Notes: generated by a model not told the origin, from the sequence alone. Positions 6,781-28,168 are shown, counted from the first letter of the stretch. The stretch is 64,000 nt of DNA from a phage (GCA_009015555.1 GCA_009015555.1_3613.1), one strand, 5' to 3'. Numbers and translations are program-made.

Positions 6781-7977
6781 ATGTTTCCTTTTGCTATTAT
6801 TCCACCGTTTGTTCTTTCAGGCAAGGAAAAAATCAAGCAGTTTTCGGTTACGTCTTACGACAGTATGGTCCTGACTGATAAGGGGAACCTGTATGTTACA
6901 GGATTCAACCGGGTGGGTGAGCTTGGTGTTGGGGACACAACTAACCGAAATAACCAATGGGTTTTGGTAATGCAGGACGTAAACTGGATTGCAAGCAACC
7001 GTGAGAAGCTGTGGGCAATTAAGAACGACGGTTCCATTTACACCCCGGATCTTCGGTCATCCAGTACAACTGCATATACTTGGCAAATCGACACGGTAGC
7101 ACCTGGAAGTATTGGGGATTTGTCTGGGGATAATATCAAGGAGATTTACAGCGACACAGAGAGCGTATATATCCTCAAAAAGGATGGTTCACTGTGGTAT
7201 CTGGGAAATAACTCTAAAGGCCAAGCTGGAAACGGGGGAACTTCCTTAACCACACGCTTTGTGAAGGTTTCAGATGGTGTGGTATCTTGGTCATCCAGTG
7301 GACCCACTGTTGTTTTCGTGAAAACAGACGGATACTTCTGGGGCTGCGGATCAAATTCCCGAAATATCATTTCCTCTGCTGGCAGCAGTATCACAACCCC
7401 TACCCGGATGTTTAGCACCACCCACGCTGACGGAGGTGTTGTAACAGATTACACGCTGGCCTCTGACCAAGCGTTTTTGATCAGATATAGTAATGGTAAA
7501 TATCGTACCAAAGGTCTCAATATCGGACAACTTCCTTCAGGGGATGCAAGTCCATACAATACCCTTACGGACGTTCCTGACGGATACACCCCCGGTGATG
7601 GAACGGAGCCTCTGGTAAGCAAAACAGGAGGGGTGTCGGCCTCTGGAACTTGGCCTAACTATAGTGGTCTTTTCTTCTACCATACGGGAGGGAAATTCAT
7701 AGTCACTGGTCAAGCAAGCGGGAGAATTTCCGGGACCAGCCAAACCAGCGGTACACTCTCAAACTGGACCAATGTCGATGCGGCAAGTGACGAGATCCCA
7801 TCTATCAAGGGAATGACCTTCGGACTGGGTTGGGTTGCTGCCTACAACGATACGCAGATTCTGTACTGGGGGTATACGGGAAACTCCTCTGCATATCCGG
7901 TTGTGGGATACCTAATGCCCGGACCTTCAAGGCTTGAATATGTGGCACGTTTTGCAACCCCGCCGATCGAGGCATAA
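6781..7977 (+). CDS. RCC1-repeat (beta-propeller-like) protein, probably fibre-associated
   Basis: GGAGG RBS. Repeated G-x-N-x-x-G-x-L/A-G-x-G motifs (GFNRVGELGVGD, GNNSKGQAGNGG, GLNIGQLPSGD). Confidence 0.65.
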   Translation: MFPFAIIPPFVLSGKEKIKQFSVTSYDSMVLTDKGNLYVTGFNRVGELGVGDTTNRNNQWVLVMQDVNWIASNREKLWAIKNDGSIYTPDLRSSSTTAYTWQIDTVAPGSIGDLSGDNIKEIYSDTESVYILKKDGSLWYLGNNSKGQAGNGGTSLTTRFVKVSDGVVSWSSSGPTVVFVKTDGYFWGCGSNSRNIISSAGSSITTPTRMFSTTHADGGVVTDYTLASDQAFLIRYSNGKYRTKGLNIGQLPSGDASPYNTLTDVPDGYTPGDGTEPLVSKTGGVSASGTWPNYSGLFFYHTGGKFIVTGQASGRISGTSQTSGTLSNWTNVDAASDEIPSIKGMTFGLGWVAAYNDTQILYWGYTGNSSAYPVVGYLMPGPSRLEYVARFATPPIEA

Positions 7978-9967: not shown

Positions 9968-10621
9968 TCAACTTACTTTTGAAATTACCAGTTTTTGAAC
10001 GTAGCCCTGCAACAGGGCGTAAGTTACACCACCCACATAACTACCGCCGACAGAGAGTCTCTCTCCGGCACCGAACCAGTTGGGAACAGAAAAGTTCTGA
10101 ACTTCCCCGCTCACCATATTTCTCACACGGATCTGCCGAGAGTCCGGGTAAGTTTCGATCCGCAGATTAAAAACTTGGCCCTGATTACCATTGATCGAGC
10201 AACGAACATAATTTCCGCTGTTGTCTGTTGGGAACAATTGGTGCCCTCCAACCCCAACCATGCCATAATGCGCCAGTCCGGCGACGATCCTTGTGACGTA
10301 ATCGCCAGAACACCACACCATCTGGGTTGCAGAAGGACTAAGGCTTTGGAAAACAACCTCAATCACCATAGGATCTGTGGATAGATCCACTGAATACTGA
10401 GTTTGGAAATACCCTTGGCCTTGGGCAGGTATGAACTGCATGACCCTTCCAATCCCTGCAACATCGACTATCCTTGGGCCTGTGCCGACCAAAGAGAAGG
10501 TGTGGTTTTCAGACCAGTCCTTCAAAACAGTCTCGCCGAGAGATTGCCGTGTGGCATCCACGTAGAGAATGGCATCCTCTTTGCGAGATGACTTCCCTAT
10601 AATCATTATCTCGTTCATCAA
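9968..10621 (-). CDS. hypothetical protein
   Basis: 217-aa ORF; 4-nt overlap with the downstream gene. Confidence 0.55.
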   Translation of the reverse strand: MMNEIMIIGKSSRKEDAILYVDATRQSLGETVLKDWSENHTFSLVGTGPRIVDVAGIGRVMQFIPAQGQGYFQTQYSVDLSTDPMVIEVVFQSLSPSATQMVWCSGDYVTRIVAGLAHYGMVGVGGHQLFPTDNSGNYVRCSINGNQGQVFNLRIETYPDSRQIRVRNMVSGEVQNFSVPNWFGAGERLSVGGSYVGGVTYALLQGYVQKLVISKVS

Positions 10622-20159: not shown

Positions 20160-20187
20160 AATAAAAAACCGCCCCGAAGGGCGGTTA
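20160..20187 (-). terminator. rho-independent terminator (minus strand)
   Basis: Minus strand AACCGCCC-TTCG-GGGCGGTT followed by TTTTTATT. Confidence 0.75.
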
Positions 20188-20811
20188 TCTTTTCTTGGTT
20201 TCAATCTTGATTGAGCGCATCAAGCACCGGGAATGATACAGAGCTTGGTCTTGAGAACCGCCGATCATGAGATTAAAACTTGTCCCGTCTGCAAGATCTG
20301 GGATGGCTTTGTTGTTTATCGTTGGCGATCCATCAACAGTTACAGTGAGGCTCTTGTTAATAGACTCGAAGATTATCTCGTGATAAACACCTTTTGTCAC
20401 GGCGGGGCCTGCATTGACCCTGCTGGAATTATACCACCAGTCAAGGTATCCGTTACTCAGCATGTTGGCGATCCAAGTGCCAGACCCGTTTCCTTGAATA
20501 GATCTCCCCACAAATATCATTGGGTTTGTTGCCGCTGCCTTAACCTTCAGATTCATGGTGATCTTCCAGTCATTGTTTAGCAGCTTGTCTGGGGTGGTCC
20601 CTCCGCTCAATGCCCCATCTCCAACAAAATCCATCGCTGGCAGGCCCTCGTCGAGAACCGTCGCGGATGTTCCGGCGGTCCTGTTGAACGTTATCCCGCG
20701 ATCAGTGAATCCTGAGAATGTGCCCAAGGGATACTTGGTGAAGTCCAACTCGAACCAAGTGCTGTACTTTTTCGGATCTCCGCCCCCCGGCAGTACCAAC
20801 ATCTCTTGCAT
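20185..20811 (-). CDS. MQEML-family paralog 1; concanavalin-A/LamG-like lectin fold suspected
   Basis: N-terminus MQEMLVLPGGGD shared with three other genes; beta-rich with a LamG-like segment (LTVTVDGSPTINN). Confidence 0.6.
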   Translation of the reverse strand: MQEMLVLPGGGDPKKYSTWFELDFTKYPLGTFSGFTDRGITFNRTAGTSATVLDEGLPAMDFVGDGALSGGTTPDKLLNNDWKITMNLKVKAAATNPMIFVGRSIQGNGSGTWIANMLSNGYLDWWYNSSRVNAGPAVTKGVYHEIIFESINKSLTVTVDGSPTINNKAIPDLADGTSFNLMIGGSQDQALYHSRCLMRSIKIETKKR

Positions 20812-20825
20812 ATTGCCCCCTAAAA

Positions 20826-20851
20826 GAAAAGGGGCCGAAGCCCCCGGAATA
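20826..20851 (-). terminator. rho-independent terminator after the DNA polymerase gene (minus strand)
   Basis: Minus strand GGGGGCTTCGGCCCC followed by TTTTCTTTT. Confidence 0.7.
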
Positions 20852-20885
20852 CAAGCATTTTACCACAAATGTGTAAAAATAGCCA

Positions 20886-23522
20886 TTAGTGACAATCTCC
20901 CCAGCTTGTGCCCGTCAGGTATTCACCTGTGATGTGGACTGGAGATTTCATCATCTTAGCCGCCTGCTCCACGCACTTAACGACCATCTGCCCGACCGGG
21001 CAATGAATAATCGTGTACACGCCGTTCTCGTCCGGATCACACTTGAACTTACCTTCTTTCACACAGTGACCATCCAGAACCAGACCTTTCGCCAGGCACT
21101 GCTCAACAAAGGCTTTTGCGGTTGCCTCGTCGTTGAACTTCCATTCTTTCTTGAACTTGTGCGGCACTTCAAGCTGGTATTCATCGTGGTAGTAGATGAT
21201 ACGGCGGACGCCTTCATCATACCAGCCACGCTTAACCAACTGCCAGTGCAGCAGGATACCGACCAGATCGAACAGTGCAGCACCGCCGTTCTGCTGGTAT
21301 GCGTTCAGCAAGGAGTGTTTGGAGCGGGTGTAGATCTTACGACCATCGAGGCCGTAGATAAAGCGTTTCCCGGTCAACTCCCAGAACTTCTCAAGTGCTT
21401 CTTTACGACCTTTCAGACCGATGTTGCTATCCCAGAATGCGTCGATTACCGCCTGAGCCTTGTCGAGGGAAATACCCAACATGGAGGCGATCTTCGCGGC
21501 CTGGGCACCGTACATGATGCCGTATGTCACACCCTTACCTTCACCACGGGAAACCTTCTTACCCGCCGCTTTGGTATACGCTTCAGCGTTTCGGCTGTGG
21601 GCGTCACCTGATTCCATGATCCGGAGATATGCCCCGCCGTCGAACTCGTAGGCACCCCATGCTGCGATCATACCTTCGAGGTTTGAGCCGTCGATACCAA
21701 CCTGATATTTCCCTTCAGATGCCCGGAATAAGCCACGCATCTCTTTACCCAGTAAAACCTTCTCGTCTGGTTTAGGGACGTTAGCCACGATTGTGTGCTT
21801 ACGTCGCCCGGTGTTGGTGATCCCAGAATAACGCGCCGGGAGTTTACCGTCAATACGCAGTCGTGGGTGGTTCAGCCATCCTGTGTCAACCTTGTCTTCC
21901 TTGAGCGGGTCAAGTACAGAACGACGGTTACGCAGAGACAGCCACTTCACGATCTGCTTTGCCATATGACCGTCAACCTTCTCCAAGTTCGGACACAGGC
22001 CGCTCATATCTTTCAACTGCGGAGACGTAGGCAGGCCACGGGCCTTACGTCGCAACAGCTTGTACATCTTCTCTTTGTCCTGCCACGCCTTCGGGGTGAT
22101 GCCGAGGTATTCCAGAATAAGATCCCGGTATTCAACTTGGTCCAACTGCTCAATGTACTCACGGACAAGCCCATCGACCTCGTTATCGGGGCGTTGTTTC
22201 TTAAACTGGTCCTTCGTCACATCCTTACTGCGCCACAGGGTTGGCTTCCAGCCTGCATCACGGATAAGGAACTTCTTCACGTCATCTTGGTTACCGATAC
22301 GCATCGGAATCATAATGTCCGGCATGGTTTGGTTCTTCAGATCCAACATTGCCCGTGCCATGTCCTCTGGTGAGAGAGGGATCAGGGTCGTTTGCTTGTT
22401 GTTCTGGTCCCGGATAAACTGCGGCATCGCTGCCTCATCCTCGACACCATGCTCATTGCAATACTTGATTGCTGCCGCCGTCAGGCTACCATCGGCCTTG
22501 AAAGACTTCGCCGGGGGACCCTTAAAGTCGAGTGCCTCCCAGTTGACATTATACCCCAACTTCTCCAGCCACTTCCACCCAGTCCCGGACAAAGATCCAT
22601 CGCCCTTGAACGGCTTAGAAGGGAAGGTCGGTTGTGCTGACTTCGCCATCTCTTTCTTCGGGAGATGGGGTTCAACATCTCCCTCGATCTCTCGCATCAT
22701 TTGATCGATACGGTCACGAAGTTTAAGTGCCGCCTCTTCGTCGAAAGATACGCCCTGAATCTCCTGCTCAATCATCAGGTAGTCTGTCAGCATACCACGA
22801 CGCATGGCATTCTTCCAGTTGATCAGCTTGTACTTCTTGGCGTCCTTATCCTTATCTTCATCCTTGTACATGAAGCGTTTGTCATCTACCAGCTTGCCGT
22901 CGCAGGCGATCTCCTCCATGAGGGCCGTCCACACCATTTCGTTGATGATAACGTCTTCGATGATACGATCACAATACTTCCACAGCGGCAGGCCACGCCA
23001 GTCTTCGATTGCCACTTTCTGGTTGGCAACACGCATACCCCACGCCTCTAAGCCGTGAGGGCCGACAGGTTTCATCTTCCCGGTGACCGGGTTCTTTACC
23101 ATCTCCGGACACCCACGAGGAAGCGGTCGGTCTGGATAAAGAGTTCGAGACATTGACAGAGTGTCGAACAGGTTAACCTGCTTGCCGTTCAGGGTGCCCA
23201 TGCACTTAGGGTCGCCGAACATATCATACTGTGTTCCCAACATCTTTTTAAACAGACGAAGGTCGTAGCCGAACAGGTTGTGGATCGCGATGGATTTAGG
23301 CTCCGTCTTGAACCAATCGTTCAACTCCTCAAAGGTACGAATTTTGAAATTCTTGCCCTTCGATTGGATAAATTTCAACGCCTGATCGTACCCTTCCCGG
23401 TTGGGGTCGAGGAAGATATTCCAGTTATCGACCTTATACTCCTTGAACAGGATCACGTGAAGCTGGTCTACTTCTTCGAGCAGACCATTGGCTTCAGCAT
23501 CCCCTACAAACAACCCTTTCAT
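20886..23522 (-). CDS. family-A DNA polymerase with 3'-5' exonuclease domain
   Basis: Exo motif FVGDAEANG; motif A IDGSNLEGM; motif B R...KGVTYGIMYGA; motif C YYHDEYQLE. AGGAGA RBS before ATG at 23522. Confidence 0.9.
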   Translation of the reverse strand: MKGLFVGDAEANGLLEEVDQLHVILFKEYKVDNWNIFLDPNREGYDQALKFIQSKGKNFKIRTFEELNDWFKTEPKSIAIHNLFGYDLRLFKKMLGTQYDMFGDPKCMGTLNGKQVNLFDTLSMSRTLYPDRPLPRGCPEMVKNPVTGKMKPVGPHGLEAWGMRVANQKVAIEDWRGLPLWKYCDRIIEDVIINEMVWTALMEEIACDGKLVDDKRFMYKDEDKDKDAKKYKLINWKNAMRRGMLTDYLMIEQEIQGVSFDEEAALKLRDRIDQMMREIEGDVEPHLPKKEMAKSAQPTFPSKPFKGDGSLSGTGWKWLEKLGYNVNWEALDFKGPPAKSFKADGSLTAAAIKYCNEHGVEDEAAMPQFIRDQNNKQTTLIPLSPEDMARAMLDLKNQTMPDIMIPMRIGNQDDVKKFLIRDAGWKPTLWRSKDVTKDQFKKQRPDNEVDGLVREYIEQLDQVEYRDLILEYLGITPKAWQDKEKMYKLLRRKARGLPTSPQLKDMSGLCPNLEKVDGHMAKQIVKWLSLRNRRSVLDPLKEDKVDTGWLNHPRLRIDGKLPARYSGITNTGRRKHTIVANVPKPDEKVLLGKEMRGLFRASEGKYQVGIDGSNLEGMIAAWGAYEFDGGAYLRIMESGDAHSRNAEAYTKAAGKKVSRGEGKGVTYGIMYGAQAAKIASMLGISLDKAQAVIDAFWDSNIGLKGRKEALEKFWELTGKRFIYGLDGRKIYTRSKHSLLNAYQQNGGAALFDLVGILLHWQLVKRGWYDEGVRRIIYYHDEYQLEVPHKFKKEWKFNDEATAKAFVEQCLAKGLVLDGHCVKEGKFKCDPDENGVYTIIHCPVGQMVVKCVEQAAKMMKSPVHITGEYLTGTSWGDCH

Positions 23523-23611
23523 ACTCTCTCCTTTTTGGCATACCTCCACTCAGGATAGCCCAATGCCTCGTAAAGATCAACCTATCAATACCCGTCCTTG
23601 GGTGAATAATC

Positions 23612-24328
23612 CTAAAGTTTTTCGAACACGGGCCACCAGATCCCGTTGTTTACCGTCGTCTGCAAGTAGGTGTTGTCGAACTGCACATACTTAAAGGGGT
23701 ACGTTGCCGAGTCCGGGTAGTTAGTGTCAAACCTACCACGAATGAATGCCTTGGTGGTCAGGTTTCCTTTCACCATTGCCCCGCTTCTCGTAGACCCGGT
23801 GTAGTTAGGCTTCGTGACCTTCACCGACTCCGGGACAAAAAGATCATGAAAGTTGATGACCGCCTTTACCTGATCTGACAATGCCCACATATTGGGCACA
23901 AAAAGATCGTATTCCTGAACCGGAGTGAAGTCAGGAACATTTATGGTGGCAGAGGCTCCATAAACATCGTTGGGCACACCTGACATCAAGCGGACCCGGT
24001 AGGTATCCTGCCCAATGGTGATCTTTCTGTCCTGTGCTGTTGCTGCCACCCCTGGTGGGGTTATTCCAACACCGTCACTACCGAATACCGCCCCTTTGAG
24101 ATAAACAGCCTGGTAATTGTCCCGTCCGATGGGATGGGAGGGGACAATAATGGTCTTGCCTCCCTTTGTGTAAATGAAATATTTAAAGGAAGCCGCCTTG
24201 GCAAGTATATTCGCCGGGGCAAGATCTGCAACAAGGTCAGCGTGTGATATGAAGGAACCTTCTGAGAGAATCCCTACATACGTAGCCTCCGCGCCGGGCT
24301 TAGAGGCAACAATCAACATTTCCTGCAT
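23612..24328 (-). CDS. MQEML-family paralog 2
   Basis: N-terminus MQEMLIVASKPG; beta-rich. Confidence 0.55.
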   Translation of the reverse strand: MQEMLIVASKPGAEATYVGILSEGSFISHADLVADLAPANILAKAASFKYFIYTKGGKTIIVPSHPIGRDNYQAVYLKGAVFGSDGVGITPPGVAATAQDRKITIGQDTYRVRLMSGVPNDVYGASATINVPDFTPVQEYDLFVPNMWALSDQVKAVINFHDLFVPESVKVTKPNYTGSTRSGAMVKGNLTTKAFIRGRFDTNYPDSATYPFKYVQFDNTYLQTTVNNGIWWPVFEKL

Positions 24329-24507
24329 CAGCCCTCCAGTTTAACCATGCACGAACCGCTTTTCCATTTGCTTACGGTGCCCAGAACTTCGACCTTGGCC
24401 TTGTTCCCTTTGATCTGGCGGATGATCCCACCCTGAAGCTCATTGTAGCCCCAATAAATAGCCACCTTGTCGCCCTCTTTAAGAGGGGTCCCACGATAAT
24501 CAGTCAT
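24328..24507 (-). CDS. small hypothetical protein (59 aa)
   Basis: Hand-translated MTDYRGTPLKEGDKVAIYWGYNELQGGIIRQIKGNKAKVEVLGTVSKWKSGSCMVKLEG; AAGGA RBS; stop overlaps the next ATG. Confidence 0.35.
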   Translation of the reverse strand: MTDYRGTPLKEGDKVAIYWGYNELQGGIIRQIKGNKAKVEVLGTVSKWKSGSCMVKLEG

Positions 24508-24591
24508 TATGGTTCCTTATGTCCATGATGTACATGACAACACAAAGGAGGCCCACGGCCCCCAAGAAAACTAAACCAAACCAATCCGGCA

Positions 24592-25062
24592 TCAGTCCAC
24601 CTCAACAGGCTCGATGAAGTAGTTCTGGCCCTTCTTGACTTGCATGAAGGTCCCCTCTACCCAAGTACCTGAACCTTGAATACGTGTTTCCGAGATGTCA
24701 TACTTCGTGTTTGGATCACGTTTTCTGTGAAGCAGTTGGAGAATCAACTCCAGACTACTGAAGGAGATCTTGTATTCAAATCCCTCTTTGTCTTCAAAGA
24801 CCGCCACCGCAGAACTCCTTCCTTTCTCTGTGTGAGAAAACTGGAGAGACATCTTGCGGGTTTCGTGCTCTATCTCTTCTACACGTTTGTTTTCCGAACC
24901 GGGCCGGAACATATGAACAAAGTCACAGAGTGGGAATCGGGCAGCATACACCTCTTCTGCTTTTGGTGTAAAAGCAAATCCCTCCCATCCTGTGAACCAC
25001 TTCCCGCCTGACCCGGCTTCCGCCAAGGCAGGGTATGAACGTTTACGAAGTTTTCCCATCAC
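24592..25062 (-). CDS. hypothetical protein
   Basis: 156-aa ORF. Confidence 0.5.
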   Translation of the reverse strand: MMGKLRKRSYPALAEAGSGGKWFTGWEGFAFTPKAEEVYAARFPLCDFVHMFRPGSENKRVEEIEHETRKMSLQFSHTEKGRSSAVAVFEDKEGFEYKISFSSLELILQLLHRKRDPNTKYDISETRIQGSGTWVEGTFMQVKKGQNYFIEPVEVD

Positions 25063-26012
25063 AAACCTCCCGGTAATTTGTATTGATAGATCGTCTTCGA
25101 ACTATAACCAGATAGCCAGAAGAACAAGTCGCCCACCCTTAAACATGGGCAGTGGAACTGGTTTGTTGGGACAGAAGCTGTTGTTTTACTACCTGTCAAG
25201 ATATCGAACTGGTTAAGTACCGTACTGCTTTGTTGGACTGTATATATAACCCCTTTCCATACGCAAGACGGCATATCATAAGGGGTAAATCCCGGGCTTG
25301 TAACTTGTACTGTTGAGATCTGAAGGTTTGTCAAATCCACACGGAGGACATCCAGATATGGAGAGCCGTCACCCTCGCTTGTGTTCTTTATTGAACCCCC
25401 TCCGGTTATATAAACAAACCCGCCCATCAAAGTGGCGTCCCCACCAGACACCCCGTGAGAAAAAGCACCGGAAAGAACTACGTCTTCCCAAGCCAAGCCA
25501 TCTATCCGGCACCTGCGGATTGCATTGGATGAAAACCCGGTGGACTTGTAGACATTGGCAATAGAGTACACGTAATCGTCATCTACGTAAATAGCTCCAT
25601 AATCATAAGGCAAGGCGGGATAAGTTTTGTACACACCCGTCTCCAAGTTCAGGGATTCGATTACCCCTGTCTTTGTCCTGCCTTGTCCGAAGTAAAGAAC
25701 TCCCTTATGGAGATAACTGGCGGTATTCAACGGTATGGTTCTTCCAGCCACACCAGGGACCATACCTGAGTATGCCATGTCGCTCACATTGAAGGTGTGC
25801 AAACCATCTGCTTTCAGGACATAGATTTTTCCATTCCAATACCCGATCGCGACGGCTGCTGTGCTGGTAGGAGAAGAGCCTCCCAAAGTTCCACCACGGG
25901 ATTGGCCCGGCATCATGGCGGCTGATGCCGACACTAATGCCTCGTCAGCATTAACGTCATCCATGTCCACAGGCACCCCTTTCTTCCCTCCTGCCATTAA
26001 TAACTCGATCAT
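25059..26012 (-). CDS. MQEML-family-related protein (beta-rich, Gly-rich)
   Basis: N-terminus MIELLMAGGKKG resembles the MQEML..GG family. Confidence 0.55.
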   Translation of the reverse strand: MIELLMAGGKKGVPVDMDDVNADEALVSASAAMMPGQSRGGTLGGSSPTSTAAVAIGYWNGKIYVLKADGLHTFNVSDMAYSGMVPGVAGRTIPLNTASYLHKGVLYFGQGRTKTGVIESLNLETGVYKTYPALPYDYGAIYVDDDYVYSIANVYKSTGFSSNAIRRCRIDGLAWEDVVLSGAFSHGVSGGDATLMGGFVYITGGGSIKNTSEGDGSPYLDVLRVDLTNLQISTVQVTSPGFTPYDMPSCVWKGVIYTVQQSSTVLNQFDILTGSKTTASVPTNQFHCPCLRVGDLFFWLSGYSSKTIYQYKLPGGL

Positions 26013-26203
26013 TATTCCTCCACCAACTCGCCCGCGCCGTTGTACCGAGTGTTCCAGTCCCTCAGCACGGAATCGTACCCGTACTCAGATCTCTTTTCTG
26101 CCCCGCACCAGCCGCAGGTTATTACGTGCCTGTCTTGATAATGGGTATCTTCCCAGTAATCAGGTTGCTTACCACAGAAAGGGCATGGTTTAATATCAGT
26201 CAT
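26012..26203 (-). CDS. Lar-family restriction-alleviation-like zinc ribbon
   Basis: MTDIKPCPFCG ... CGWCG matches the Lar family signature (KPCPFCG). Confidence 0.5.
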   Translation of the reverse strand: MTDIKPCPFCGKQPDYWEDTHYQDRHVITCGWCGAEKRSEYGYDSVLRDWNTRYNGAGELVEE

Positions 26204-26570
26204 CGGACCACTCCTTGTCGTACCCGGCATCTTCACGGGTCATAGCGATATGCGGGGCATCGCACCCGTCATACCAGTTATCGACAAACATTTTCTCGGA
26301 CCCTTCTACGATGAACAGGCCCGCCTGCCGTAATTCCTCTTGCAGGTTGCCAAACATATTATCGTTCTGGTCGAAGATCACCAGGCCTGCATCATACGAC
26401 GGTCCGTCTTCATGACGGTAAACGACCATATCACCACTGTAAGTGATCTTCAGCTTGGAATCGATCTCGTCAAGCCTGTCGGAAACCTCTTGCCAAGAAT
26501 CCGTGTGCAGATTGCCCAGCGGAGGGTCTAACAGTGCAATGACGCCCACGGTTACACGTTGCTCGCTCAT
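26196..26570 (-). CDS. hypothetical acidic protein
   Basis: 124-aa ORF. Confidence 0.5.
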   Translation of the reverse strand: MSEQRVTVGVIALLDPPLGNLHTDSWQEVSDRLDEIDSKLKITYSGDMVVYRHEDGPSYDAGLVIFDQNDNMFGNLQEELRQAGLFIVEGSEKMFVDNWYDGCDAPHIAMTREDAGYDKEWSDD

Positions 26571-26585
26571 GAATACTCCTCTCTA

Positions 26586-27239
26586 TTAATCAAGAACAAA
26601 TGGTGCCGTCGGCACTGAGAAATTACCGTCGTAACGGGCCACCTTGCTGATACGGAATTGGTCAAGCCCACCAAACATAGTTTGTTCGCCGAAGCCGATT
26701 CTTGCAAAACGGCTTACGTCACTCCACCCTCCGGAAGCAAAGGACGTGGTGGTTGGTGCCACTTTACCGTTCAGATATAACTTCGTGACTCCCCCTTTGC
26801 TCACAATAGCCACATGTGTCCAGTTGGAAAGAGGCCAGTAGTTGGTACTAAAGCTCAAATAATTCTTCTGGTCCTGAAGATAAACCACACTTTGGTAAAC
26901 CTTGAGGCAACTCTGAGTACCTGTCCCAAAATACATCCACCAGGAAGAGGCAACTGAAGAGTTTCTTGACCAAAATTCGATAGTGAACTCGTCCTCTGGT
27001 TTGAAGACGAGATCTGTTTTCTCTGTCGCCATCATCTCAAAATAGCTGGCAGTGTTAGTACAGTCAAAGTATTTGTTGTTGAATTTTCCGTAACTTCCGG
27101 TGCCTACTGTTGCTACTTTTGAAAATTGCCGGGTAGGCTTGGCAACATCAATACCTCCCTTGTCTGCTTGCAGGAGAAGGAGAGTTTTATCTCCCTTCAT
27201 GCCGCCGCCTGCACCAGCCGCCAATAGGATTTCCTGCAC
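26586..27239 (-). CDS. MQEML-family paralog 3; LamG/concanavalin-A-like
   Basis: N-terminus MQEILLAAGAGGG; LamG-like segment SNWTHVAIVSKGGVTKLYLNG. Confidence 0.6.
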   Translation of the reverse strand: MQEILLAAGAGGGMKGDKTLLLLQADKGGIDVAKPTRQFSKVATVGTGSYGKFNNKYFDCTNTASYFEMMATEKTDLVFKPEDEFTIEFWSRNSSVASSWWMYFGTGTQSCLKVYQSVVYLQDQKNYLSFSTNYWPLSNWTHVAIVSKGGVTKLYLNGKVAPTTTSFASGGWSDVSRFARIGFGEQTMFGGLDQFRISKVARYDGNFSVPTAPFVLD

Positions 27240-27249
27240 TTTTTACTCC

Positions 27250-27921
27250 TTAATGATTGAAGTGGTAAACAGCCCGGGCAAACCCCTCTGGGGTCAGCGA
27301 TCGTAGCTGTTTGGTCCTCTCCGACTTACCACCTAAAAACTTCCAGCCCCAGAAGCAGCCTATATGAGGCACAGGCTTCTTGTCAGGCATCACAAAGCCA
27401 TTCCCTACCCAGAGGCAAGTTTTCTTTGTGTAGGCGTTCCTGTACGGCATTTTTGGGTGGTACGAGCCTTCAATCTGACTCAAGTACCCTCCATACTCGT
27501 AAGGGTCGAAATAATGATCCGGCTTGCGCCACAGCGTACTCATCTTACCCACCGGGTTCTCGACCATCCAAGGACAGCCAAAAACGTTAGCAACACGCTC
27601 TACCATTTTAGCATTATCTATCGACTCCATCAACTCCGATTTCGTCCGGGTATGCTTGGCCCCGGCTACAGACAGGTTGGTGCAGCTTGGAAATGCAAAG
27701 ATAATGTCCGGCTTCGGAATACCCGCTTTGGCAACGAAGGCTTCGAAGTCTTCATCGATCCAACAATTCACATACTGGATGTTGGGGTGCTCCCGGCGCA
27801 GTTCATACTGACCATGATCAGCGGTGTCTGCATTAAAGCAGAACACCTTCCAACCATTCAGGGCGTACTCATACCCCATGAAACCAGACCCATCAAACAG
27901 GCTCCAGACGACTTTAGACAT
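27250..27921 (-). CDS. putative divergent DNA (cytosine-5) methyltransferase-like protein
   Basis: Motif I-like LFDGSGFMG, PSC in place of PCQ (motif IV), ENPVG (motif VI). By-eye only. Confidence 0.45.
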   Translation of the reverse strand: MSKVVWSLFDGSGFMGYEYALNGWKVFCFNADTADHGQYELRREHPNIQYVNCWIDEDFEAFVAKAGIPKPDIIFAFPSCTNLSVAGAKHTRTKSELMESIDNAKMVERVANVFGCPWMVENPVGKMSTLWRKPDHYFDPYEYGGYLSQIEGSYHPKMPYRNAYTKKTCLWVGNGFVMPDKKPVPHIGCFWGWKFLGGKSERTKQLRSLTPEGFARAVYHFNH

Positions 27922-28168
27922 TACCAACCTCGCCGTGAATTGTGCAAGGGACAAATACATCACGTCCGAAACCATCGCGCATCTTAACTTTTTGGTAAGG
28001 GAACAGGATGTCGTCTTCATCTGCCGCGATCATGTTTTCGCCGTGTTCGATGTAAAAACGAAGCTGCCGGATCAGATAGATGGAATCTATACCGGAAGAG
28101 TCCAGCAGGTCCTCTTCGTCGTAATCTGCCATGATGCGCTGCTTATCCAGACGGACCCAATATTTCAT
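27914..28168 (-). CDS. hypothetical protein
   Basis: 84-aa acidic ORF. Confidence 0.45.
   Translation of the reverse strand: MKYWVRLDKQRIMADYDEEDLLDSSGIDSIYLIRQLRFYIEHGENMIAADEDDILFPYQKVKMRDGFGRDVFVPCTIHGEVGNV

Follow-up and report, generated by a model that had tools for sequence, protein, structure and literature searches.

A short N-terminal leader shared by beta-rich proteins of different folds in a Certrevirus-like phage: a candidate address label for the virion

Introduction

Two ways in which phages equip their particles with variable proteins are already known, the addressing of diverse cargo by a short N-terminal sequence, as in T4, and lineage-matched N-terminal anchors, as in tail fibres and tailspikes. 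The internal proteins of T4 are unrelated to each other and share only an N-terminal capsid targeting sequence (CTS) of ~10 residues (PMC3012670, PMC7411985). Another group of relevance here is paralog family B of phage SPN3US, which has been found both in particles of tailless mutants and in heads after purification, and which is not among the listed protease-cleaved proteins (PMC5694885, PMC10052503). Here, we describe a group of genes that may follow a comparable design, found in a stretch of 64,000 nucleotides from a phage (GCA_009015555.1, GCA_009015555.1_3613.1), which as a whole is referred to as the window. It shares 95-97% DNA identity with three Cronobacter phages of the genus Certrevirus (Vequintavirinae), namely CR3, CR8 and PBES 02. 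Four of its genes, A to D, start with the same short leader peptide and continue into bodies of different kinds (Table 1).

A first-pass annotation of the window had described these as a paralogous family with a common N-terminus, and had proposed that this N-terminus might tag lectin-like bodies for assembly or targeting. Our computational analysis leads us to favour, with moderate confidence, an interpretation in which the leader serves as an address label that puts modular binding-domain proteins into the virus particle.

Results

The shared leader

The leader, which we term type 1, has the form M-x-E-[MLIA]-[LM]-φ-φ and is followed by a linker of 5-12 residues rich in G, S, P and K. All four open reading frames (ORFs) were recovered at the coordinates listed in Table 1, on the minus strand and with the N-termini originally described. 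A strict regular expression (^M.E[MILSVT]L[MILVAF]), run on each possible start of all six-frame ORFs of at least 80 amino acids (aa) across the 64 kb, matched A, B, C and D only. When L or M was allowed at position 5 (1138 candidate starts), one further real gene was found, referred to as the fifth gene. In the proteins of the window, the core motif has a background of 0.0012 per residue position, so that ~0.1 N-terminal matches would be expected in ~95 genes, compared to 5 observed, and the DNA pattern ATG-MAN-GAR-ATG-HT occurs twice in the window where shuffled sequences predict 0.07 occurrences. No other gene among the ~95 of the window has the leader, which is confined to one size and fold class. 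The distinctive N-terminus is real and far above chance. The number of members had been underestimated: the four are genuine, but there are five in the window, and three more elsewhere in CR3, which is 97% identical.

The codons of the leader vary at synonymous sites (CAA/CAG, GAG/GAA, TTG/CTA/TTA) and the DNA upstream is unrelated between the genes, which indicates that conservation acts on the peptide. On the same grounds, a repeat at the RNA or DNA level, such as a shared promoter, ribosome-binding site or operator, was ruled out. In family alignments built for A, B, C and D (A1, A2, A3, A4), M1 and E3 are invariant or nearly so in each family, and positions 4-7 remain hydrophobic down to 20-50% identity, jumbo phages included. 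The A alignment comprises 11 sequences, with M1 and E3 invariant down to 55% identity; in the B family, which includes the jumbo-phage protein Psa21_90, M1 and E3 are invariant and L5 is nearly so. Leaders from jumbo phages read MLELLMLG in RAY gp50, a homologue of C that has retained it at 21% identity, MFELLL in Psa21_89 and MLESLLL in Psa21_90. Conservation in related phages, a check that had been proposed at the outset, was thus found for every one of the families.

Looser type-1 leaders (MELIV..LLLKKK, MMQDALLLKKK and MQETNLLKK) were seen at the starts of SURPRISE13_062-064, three tandem concanavalin A (ConA)-like genes of a jumbo phage of Burkholderia, where they adjoin genes for virion and baseplate proteins.

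A different leader on homologous cargo

In our view, the strongest single result is a sequence comparison with the jumbo phage CBB, where cargo homologous to that of D carries another leader. Nine small LamG/Kelch proteins of CBB (CBB_536, 537, 548-554) all start with MLPF[SPAT][RI]..[EQ]Y[GA]N. D and CBB_548 are 34% identical (E 3e-30), and their alignment sets in at residue 19 of either protein, right past two unrelated 18-residue leaders. Likewise, the alignment of the tagged CR3 protein gp255 with CBB_549 starts at residue 16. As homologous cargo has a different leader in CBB, the leader is lineage-specific, which is predicted for an assembly interface and not for an element of the fold.

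The CBB leader is one form of a second type, M-[LFI]-P-F-x-[IR]-[ILV]. This type-2 leader is also found in CB7_37 (MIPFAIIGF), which was confirmed in virions by mass spectrometry (MS), and in the RCC1-like propeller gene of the window (Table 1).

Relatives of the tagged proteins in virions

CB7_55, which is 82% identical to B, was identified by electrospray-ionisation tandem MS in purified CB7 virions, with 4 unique peptides and 24% coverage (PMC7344957), and was singled out by the authors as the sole structural gene beyond the structural region (PMC7344957). The other orphan structural protein of CB7, CB7_251, is MS-confirmed as well (PMC7344957). Its 99% identical counterpart phiTE_203 was, after pTE217, the most abundant unidentified protein in MS of phiTE virions (PMC11972413). 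In a census of CB7, the type-1 tag was found on just two ORFs of at least 100 aa, CB7_55 and CB7_251, and the 26 MS-detected proteins include both (P ~0.01; regular expression applied to ~128 kb, an ATG-only pattern to the last 15 kb, with 253 ORFs taken from the numbering CB7_1-CB7_253). The nine MLPF proteins of CBB have also been found for the most part, with seven detected in virions by MS (PMC5259590). Sorted by gene, MS-detected homologues exist for B (CB7_55), D (CBB_548) and the family of the fifth gene (CBB_549), and there is a tagged LamG-like protein besides (CB7_251/phiTE_203). In rV5, the abundant out-of-module virion protein gp133 carries no tag, and no tagged gene was encountered in the 34 kb that were scanned.

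Cargo domains

The initial statement that at least two of the proteins are LamG-like was correct, as both A and D exceed the Pfam gathering score for PF13385 (Laminin_G_3), with 28.7 bits for A (cut-off 27.6; E 1.7e-6) and 41.8 bits for D (E 1.6e-10); B and C have no PF13385 match in the Pfam search. A also matches phrog_13196. D belongs to a vast LamG family (6605 cluster representatives), mostly made up of giant multi-repeat proteins. Their repeat unit starts at about residue 16-19 of D, so that the leader of D is outside the repeat unit. Single-domain distant homologues retain the leader (MQEILLTAG, MIELMLEGG, MLESMLMTS), and in PVP-SE1 gp10 the sequence GTG-MKELLLVGG is found upstream of the annotated start; therefore, the CR3 annotation of D, which starts at Met14, is probably too short. 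In the window, a stop is followed one codon later by the GTG start of D, and a strong Shine-Dalgarno sequence (AAGGAG) is found upstream of it. The fifth gene matches phrog_6011 ('virion structural protein', E 3.6e-45) over residues 1-215 and is in the same family as CR3 gp194 and gp255. It has no Pfam LamG match, while these two relatives match weakly to significantly.

For C, AlphaFold2 (AF2) predicted an all-beta structure with a mean predicted local distance difference test (pLDDT) score of 84.6 and a predicted template-modelling (TM) score of 0.86, confident throughout except for residues 1-16 (pLDDT <50). A Foldseek search of the PDB with this model returned the Kelch domains of LZTR1, KLHDC10, KLHDC3, KLHL12 and Keap1 as best matches (E 1e-10 to 1e-8, TM ~0.55-0.66). 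Pfam Kelch repeats stay below the gathering score (PF24681 16.9 bits vs 50; Kelch_6 15.2 vs 25.3), and C is assigned to the Kelch propellers at the level of the predicted fold only. In a Foldseek comparison with viral models, C matched CBB_552 as well as proteins of Noxifer and PhiPA3 labelled "virion structural proteins". For B, Pfam gave no match, and neither did a sequence search of the PDB with its profile. When aligned by hhalign, the B profile matched SPN3US gp152 (probability 91.5%, E 8.5e-7, 115 columns) and gp149 (probability 82%); when used to scan IMG/VR, it returned one locus only. Taken together, models and alignments place the leader outside the folded domain.

The claim that the four ORFs are paralogs was not borne out. 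Pairwise BLASTP among A-D shows no similarity past the first 6-7 residues. With hhalign, B and D align at residues 1-18 only and C and D at residues 1-11 only, which is the tag itself; A and D have a weak C-terminal LamG match (probability 39%), and the match between A and B (probability 11%) is not credible. The bodies of B and C are thus unrelated to the others, and under the refuting condition that had been set beforehand (similarity confined to the first residues, or membership of unrelated families) the one-family claim fails for both. Structure prediction, another of the checks that had been suggested, agrees with the alignments for C, which is modelled as a Kelch propeller (AF2, Foldseek), and B is placed in a different family by its profile.

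Further tagged genes and start codon assignment

Outside the region that is equivalent to the window, CR3 has three more tagged genes, gp194, gp255 and gp263. The true start of gp194 (MNEMLLISARDPG) is upstream of the annotated one, the N-terminus of gp255 is MNEMLMLGQAKAKAG, and that of gp263, a gene located among tRNA genes, is MNEMMIVSAPQGG. All three are LamG-like, with PF13385 scores of 28.1 bits for gp255 (above the cut-off), 21.6 for gp194 and 16.0 for gp263 (both below). The DNA pattern, when applied to the remaining CR3 genome, found these three genes and essentially nothing else. In CB7, gp194 is not present. CB7_251 is a tagged LamG-like protein with a true start (MNELLLIGCQ...) 30 codons upstream of the annotated one, and this N-terminal extension is kept in phiTE (99%), PcCB7V (96%) and Salmonella phage SSBI34 (48%). 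Annotated starts are probably too short, with loss of the tag, in CR3 gp066, CR3 gp194, PVP-SE1 gp10 and CB7_251/phiTE_203. The opposite probably applies to RAY gp50, which is annotated too long so that the tag is buried at residue 18.

Genomic setting

The tail-fibre module of the window ends at ~8 kb and is followed by the early/replication block, a long minus-strand region with genes for DNA polymerase, DNA methylase, a Lar-like protein and a primase-helicase, within which A to D are found. The first-pass annotation would have expected such proteins in a tail-fibre module. This expectation does not hold, as such virion proteins in CB7, CBB and CR3 are typically encoded outside the main structural block, and the homology of B points to the head, not the tail. 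Gene A, bracketed by two G+C-rich terminator-like hairpins, looks like a single-gene cassette inside the replication operon, in the style of a moron. B is missing from CR3 and represents an insertion relative to CR3, CR8 and PBES 02 between DNA polymerase and a 59-aa ORF; CB7 and PcCB7V have B at the same site, and the polymerase gene of CB7 is split by HNH endonucleases. Judged from these gene contents, the junction between DNA polymerase and the 59-aa ORF is a hotspot of gene gain and loss. Because B is missing in CR3, gp194 is missing in CB7 and A is found between two terminator-like hairpins, we interpret the tagged genes as variable single-gene cassettes.

Three further observations concern neighbouring genes and structural proteins. 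The order of DNA methylase followed by D is kept between Certrevirus and Seunavirus (PVP-SE1 gp9-gp10), D being a putative virion protein. The possibility that the leader mimics the N-terminal handshake strand of the sheath was ruled out, as the sheath begins with MAEYQDKVVDVEV. The 1099-aa fibre-like virion protein CB7_10 starts with MAQYEDKVVEVLV, closely like the start of the sheath protein CB7_17 (MAEYQDKVVDVEV), and this sheath-like N-terminus would be a possible route to plug a fibre into the sheath lattice.

Table 1. Coordinates of tagged genes, leader segments and other features in the window and in sequences used for comparison
Feature	Sequence	Coordinates	Strand	Remarks
RCC1-like propeller gene	window	6781..7977	+	type-2 leader MFPFAIIPPF; Pfam RCC1 matches; end of fibre module; outside the type-1 set
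Fifth tagged gene, 216 aa	window	9968..10618	-	leader MNEIMIIGKSS, then phrog_6011 body; missed by the first-pass annotation
Strong bidirectional terminator-like hairpin	window	20167..20186	.	directly after gene A
Gene A, 208 aa	window	20185..20811	-	leader MQEMLVLPGGGD, then LamG/ConA-like domain
Leader (tag and linker) segment of A	window	20776..20811	-	codon comparison, family alignment
Terminator-like hairpin	window	20830..20845	-	between DNA polymerase gene and gene A
DNA polymerase	window	20886..23549	-
Gene B, 238 aa	window	23612..24328	-	leader MQEMLIVASKPG, then beta-rich domain of SPN3US paralog-family-B type
Leader segment of B	window	24293..24328	-	AF2 pLDDT <50 for residues 1-13, model poor overall
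Hairpin with promoter-like hexamers	window	24547..24563 (hairpin)		upstream of 59-aa ORF and B
Gene C, 317 aa	window	25059..26012	-	leader MIELLMAGGKKG, then predicted six-bladed Kelch-type beta-propeller
Leader segment of C	window	25965..26012	-	residues 1-16, predicted disordered (AF2)
Gene D, 217 aa	window	26586..27239	-	GTG start; leader MQEILLAAGAGGGMKGDK, then LamG domain
Leader segment of D	window	27186..27239	-	residues 1-18, upstream of LamG unit boundary
DNA methylase	window	27250..28020	-
CR3 gp066	L001	9851..10504		re-called start
CR3 gp194	L011	18419..19069		re-called start
PVP-SE1 gp10	L014	6752..7417		re-called start
PVP-SE1 gp9-gp10	L014	6013..7417		gene order DNA methylase, D
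CB7_251	L015	13248..13892		re-called start
RAY gp50	L007	9001..9939		re-called start
CBB_536, 537, 548-554	L016	3007..14103		MLPF leader
CB7_10	L004	8031..11330		fibre-like virion protein
CB7_17	L004	14902..16323		sheath
CB7_37	L004	32766..34007		type-2 leader
SURPRISE13_062-064	L005	7309..9343		looser type-1 leaders

Discussion

Each of the tagged proteins, five in the window and at least three in CR3, would consist of a short flexible leader and one compact beta-rich binding domain. For most of them this domain is predicted to be LamG/ConA-like, for C to be a Kelch propeller and for B to be of the SPN3US-family-B type. During assembly, the leader may dock its cargo on a common acceptor, and in this way proteins encoded across the early/replication region would reach the virion. 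The cargo domains may pass horizontally between Vequintavirinae and jumbo phages, with the leader matched to the acceptor of the recipient. Of what had initially been suggested, the tag on lectin-like bodies has proved the best-supported reading, although the bodies are not those of one family. The analysis shows that the tag is conserved as a peptide outside the folded domain, that it is swapped on homologous cargo in another lineage, and that purified virions of related phages contain tagged proteins; we infer that the tag itself causes incorporation. The acceptor that we favour would be head-associated, as relatives of B are present in SPN3US heads from tailless mutants and phiTE_203 has not been placed in the modelled cryo-EM reconstruction. 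By analogy, the cargo may bind glycans or proteins, host-surface ligands if it is exposed or host targets if it is ejected. Given incorporation into the virion, we rate a head-associated position above a tail-associated one and consider exterior and interior about equally probable. More tentatively, the system may be of a plug-and-play type in Vequintavirinae and several jumbo lineages, where a 7-residue peptide (type 1, M-x-E-φ-L-φ-φ; type 2, M-φ-P-F-x-φ-φ) would suffice to load arbitrary folded domains, inside the particle or on its surface, via a conserved acceptor, resulting in a rapidly exchangeable arsenal of lectins and propellers that acts as a combinatorial coat of adhesins or, once ejected, as host-targeting effectors.

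Several points weigh against the address-label interpretation. The correlation between tag and virion rests on three proteomes, all of other phages, and CB7 and phiTE appear to be devoid of A, C, D and the fifth gene. B, C and D share operons with genes of early type (a Lar-like protein, DNA methylase), which is unusual for structural proteins, and a scan for promoters and terminators found no obvious late promoter for B, C and D and no clear signal as to expression timing. The acceptor is postulated. When the first ~35 residues were inspected in the family alignments of A-D, no protease site was found consistently after the tag, and only M-x-E at positions 1-3 is conserved. The assignment to the head is by homology and applies to B only; moreover, the SPN3US relatives of B, judged by eye from ChrisDB relatives, look FN3-like at the N-terminus instead of tagged. 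Finally, the AF2 model of B (from 10 sequences) has a pLDDT of 51.7, too poor for a fold search.

Two explanations do without a label for the virion. A to D might be true paralogs that have diverged past recognition, with the N-terminus as their slowest-evolving remnant, and A, D, the fifth gene and CR3 gp194, gp255 and gp263, which all belong to the LamG superfamily or phrog_6011, could indeed share ancestry. We consider this very improbable for the set as a whole, as the folds differ (C being a predicted Kelch propeller, and B matching an unrelated family), the tag is outside the domains, and the homologous cargo in CBB bears another leader. The N-terminus might also have nothing to do with the virion and be a signal for folding, chaperone engagement, regulated proteolysis or efficient translation initiation, with the MS detections being incidental. 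In its shortness and hydrophobicity, the tag resembles some motifs recognised by chaperones or proteases, these phages encode ClpP-like proteases, and the genes are co-transcribed with early genes. This, too, is improbable. Synonymous variation speaks against an RNA-level element, the tag occurs on only one size and fold class among ~95 window genes, purified virions contain both tagged proteins of CB7 and, with the other leader, seven of nine from CBB, and an assembly interface predicts just such a lineage-specific replacement of the tag on homologous cargo.

If the leader is accepted as a label, its destination may be sought outside or inside the particle. On the exterior, it would dock lectin-like domains at capsid hexamer centres, fibres or the baseplate, where they would act as accessory adhesins that broaden or reinforce attachment to host-surface glycans in a Hoc/Ig-like manner. 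LamG and Kelch domains are typical ligand-binding surface modules, the domain of D is the repeat unit of giant phage proteins annotated as 'virion structural', baseplate-wedge or adhesin, and in phages of Machinavirus and of the SPN3US type the B-like domains come after an N-terminal domain that by eye appears FN3-like. The phiTE particle has poorly ordered density at the hexamer centres and unmodelled distal fibre parts (PMC11972413), and the tail 'whiskers' of CBB are unexplained (PMC5259590). Against this, the genes are in early/replication operons and not beside fibre genes, the presence of SPN3US family B in tailless-mutant heads excludes the tail for the relatives of B, and the exponentially modified protein abundance index of phiTE_203 (533) is ~150-fold below that of the hexamer-centre candidate pTE217 (PMC11972413); an exterior site is a possibility to be taken seriously rather than one that we expect to hold. 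We give slightly less weight to the interior, where the leader would be a functional analogue of the T4 CTS that binds the prohead scaffold or protease core, its cargo being ejected with the DNA as early host-targeting or anti-defence proteins. The architecture is that of the T4 internal proteins, the genes are scattered variable cassettes adjoining genes of anti-restriction type (Lar-like, methylases), and M-x-E resembles the φ-x-E motif of T4-type prohead proteases, one of which is encoded (CB7_5). Relatives of B are head proteins, some of them flagged 'head ejection?' (PMC5694885), and phiTE_203 has not been modelled in the symmetrised cryo-EM maps; the phiTE model comprises capsid, neck, tail and nine baseplate proteins and leaves pTE203 unplaced (PMC11972413). 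However, the leader is not followed by a conserved cleavage site, and family B of SPN3US does not figure among the proteins that are cleaved. Rigid beta-sandwiches or propellers of 20-35 kDa are an unusual cargo to eject, the leader bears no sequence similarity to MKTYQEFIAE, and most annotations of LamG domains of this type are in external structures.

Should the leader suffice for incorporation, this would explain the orphan "structural proteins" that proteomics has revealed far from the structural genes in Vequintavirinae and jumbo phages, and would supply a simple sequence rule to find such proteins and to correct their start codons. It would also be a seven-residue handle by which therapeutic phages could be made to display or package foreign proteins, much as with the T4 CTS. 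The tagged proteins might account for material left unassigned in the phiTE cryo-EM reconstruction or for the tail whiskers of CBB, and tag-swapping would be a route for binding domains to move between very different phages.

In the literature that we searched on conserved N-termini of LamG/Kelch phage proteins, no description of the leader was found, and the CB7, phiTE and CBB papers, in their accessible parts, give the proteins as structural with unknown role and do not mention a shared leader. The type-1 and type-2 leaders, the combination with LamG, Kelch and family-B cargo, the dispersal of the genes across the Vequintavirinae replication region and the exchange of tags between these phages and the Rak2-like ones thus appear to be undescribed in that literature.

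Among known systems, the T4 CTS (IPI-III, Alt) is similar in that an N-terminal leader of ~10 residues is the sole common part of diverse, fast-turning-over virion proteins, the genes are outside the core structural module, and T4-type prohead proteases are encoded in both cases. It differs in that the leader described here is unlike MKTYQEFIAE and has no conserved protease site after it. The cargo consists of LamG, Kelch or beta-rich binding domains, whereas that of T4 is small basic proteins or enzymes, and an interior site is only proposed here. Tail fibres and tailspikes also combine a conserved N-terminal attachment with distal domains that are exchanged horizontally and refitted with the anchor of the recipient (PMC12143355). 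Their anchor is a folded trimeric domain, though, whereas here it would be ~7 residues and a linker on proteins that look monomeric and globular; furthermore, the genes are outside the fibre module and the relatives of B are head-associated. Decoration proteins of the T4 Hoc type resemble the tagged proteins as non-essential binding-fold domains on virions with low or variable occupancy; Hoc, however, attaches by a folded C-terminal domain, and placement of the tagged proteins on the capsid surface is only proposed.

Like the tagged proteins, SPN3US paralog family B (gp83, gp138-154, gp161, gp237) is a many-membered set of low-copy virion proteins, and the domain of B is homologous to gp152 and gp149. 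In contrast to the tagged genes, its members in SPN3US and Machinavirus are clustered, not scattered, and apparently FN3-like at the N-terminus (by eye), and only B belongs to this family, not A, C and D. The CBB cluster (CBB_536-537 and 548-554) of this Rak2-like jumbo phage has its genes in tandem, not dispersed, and uses the MLPF leader, but it shares the cargo types, the size class and the leader-plus-domain design, with CBB_548 corresponding to D and CBB_549 to CR3 gp255.

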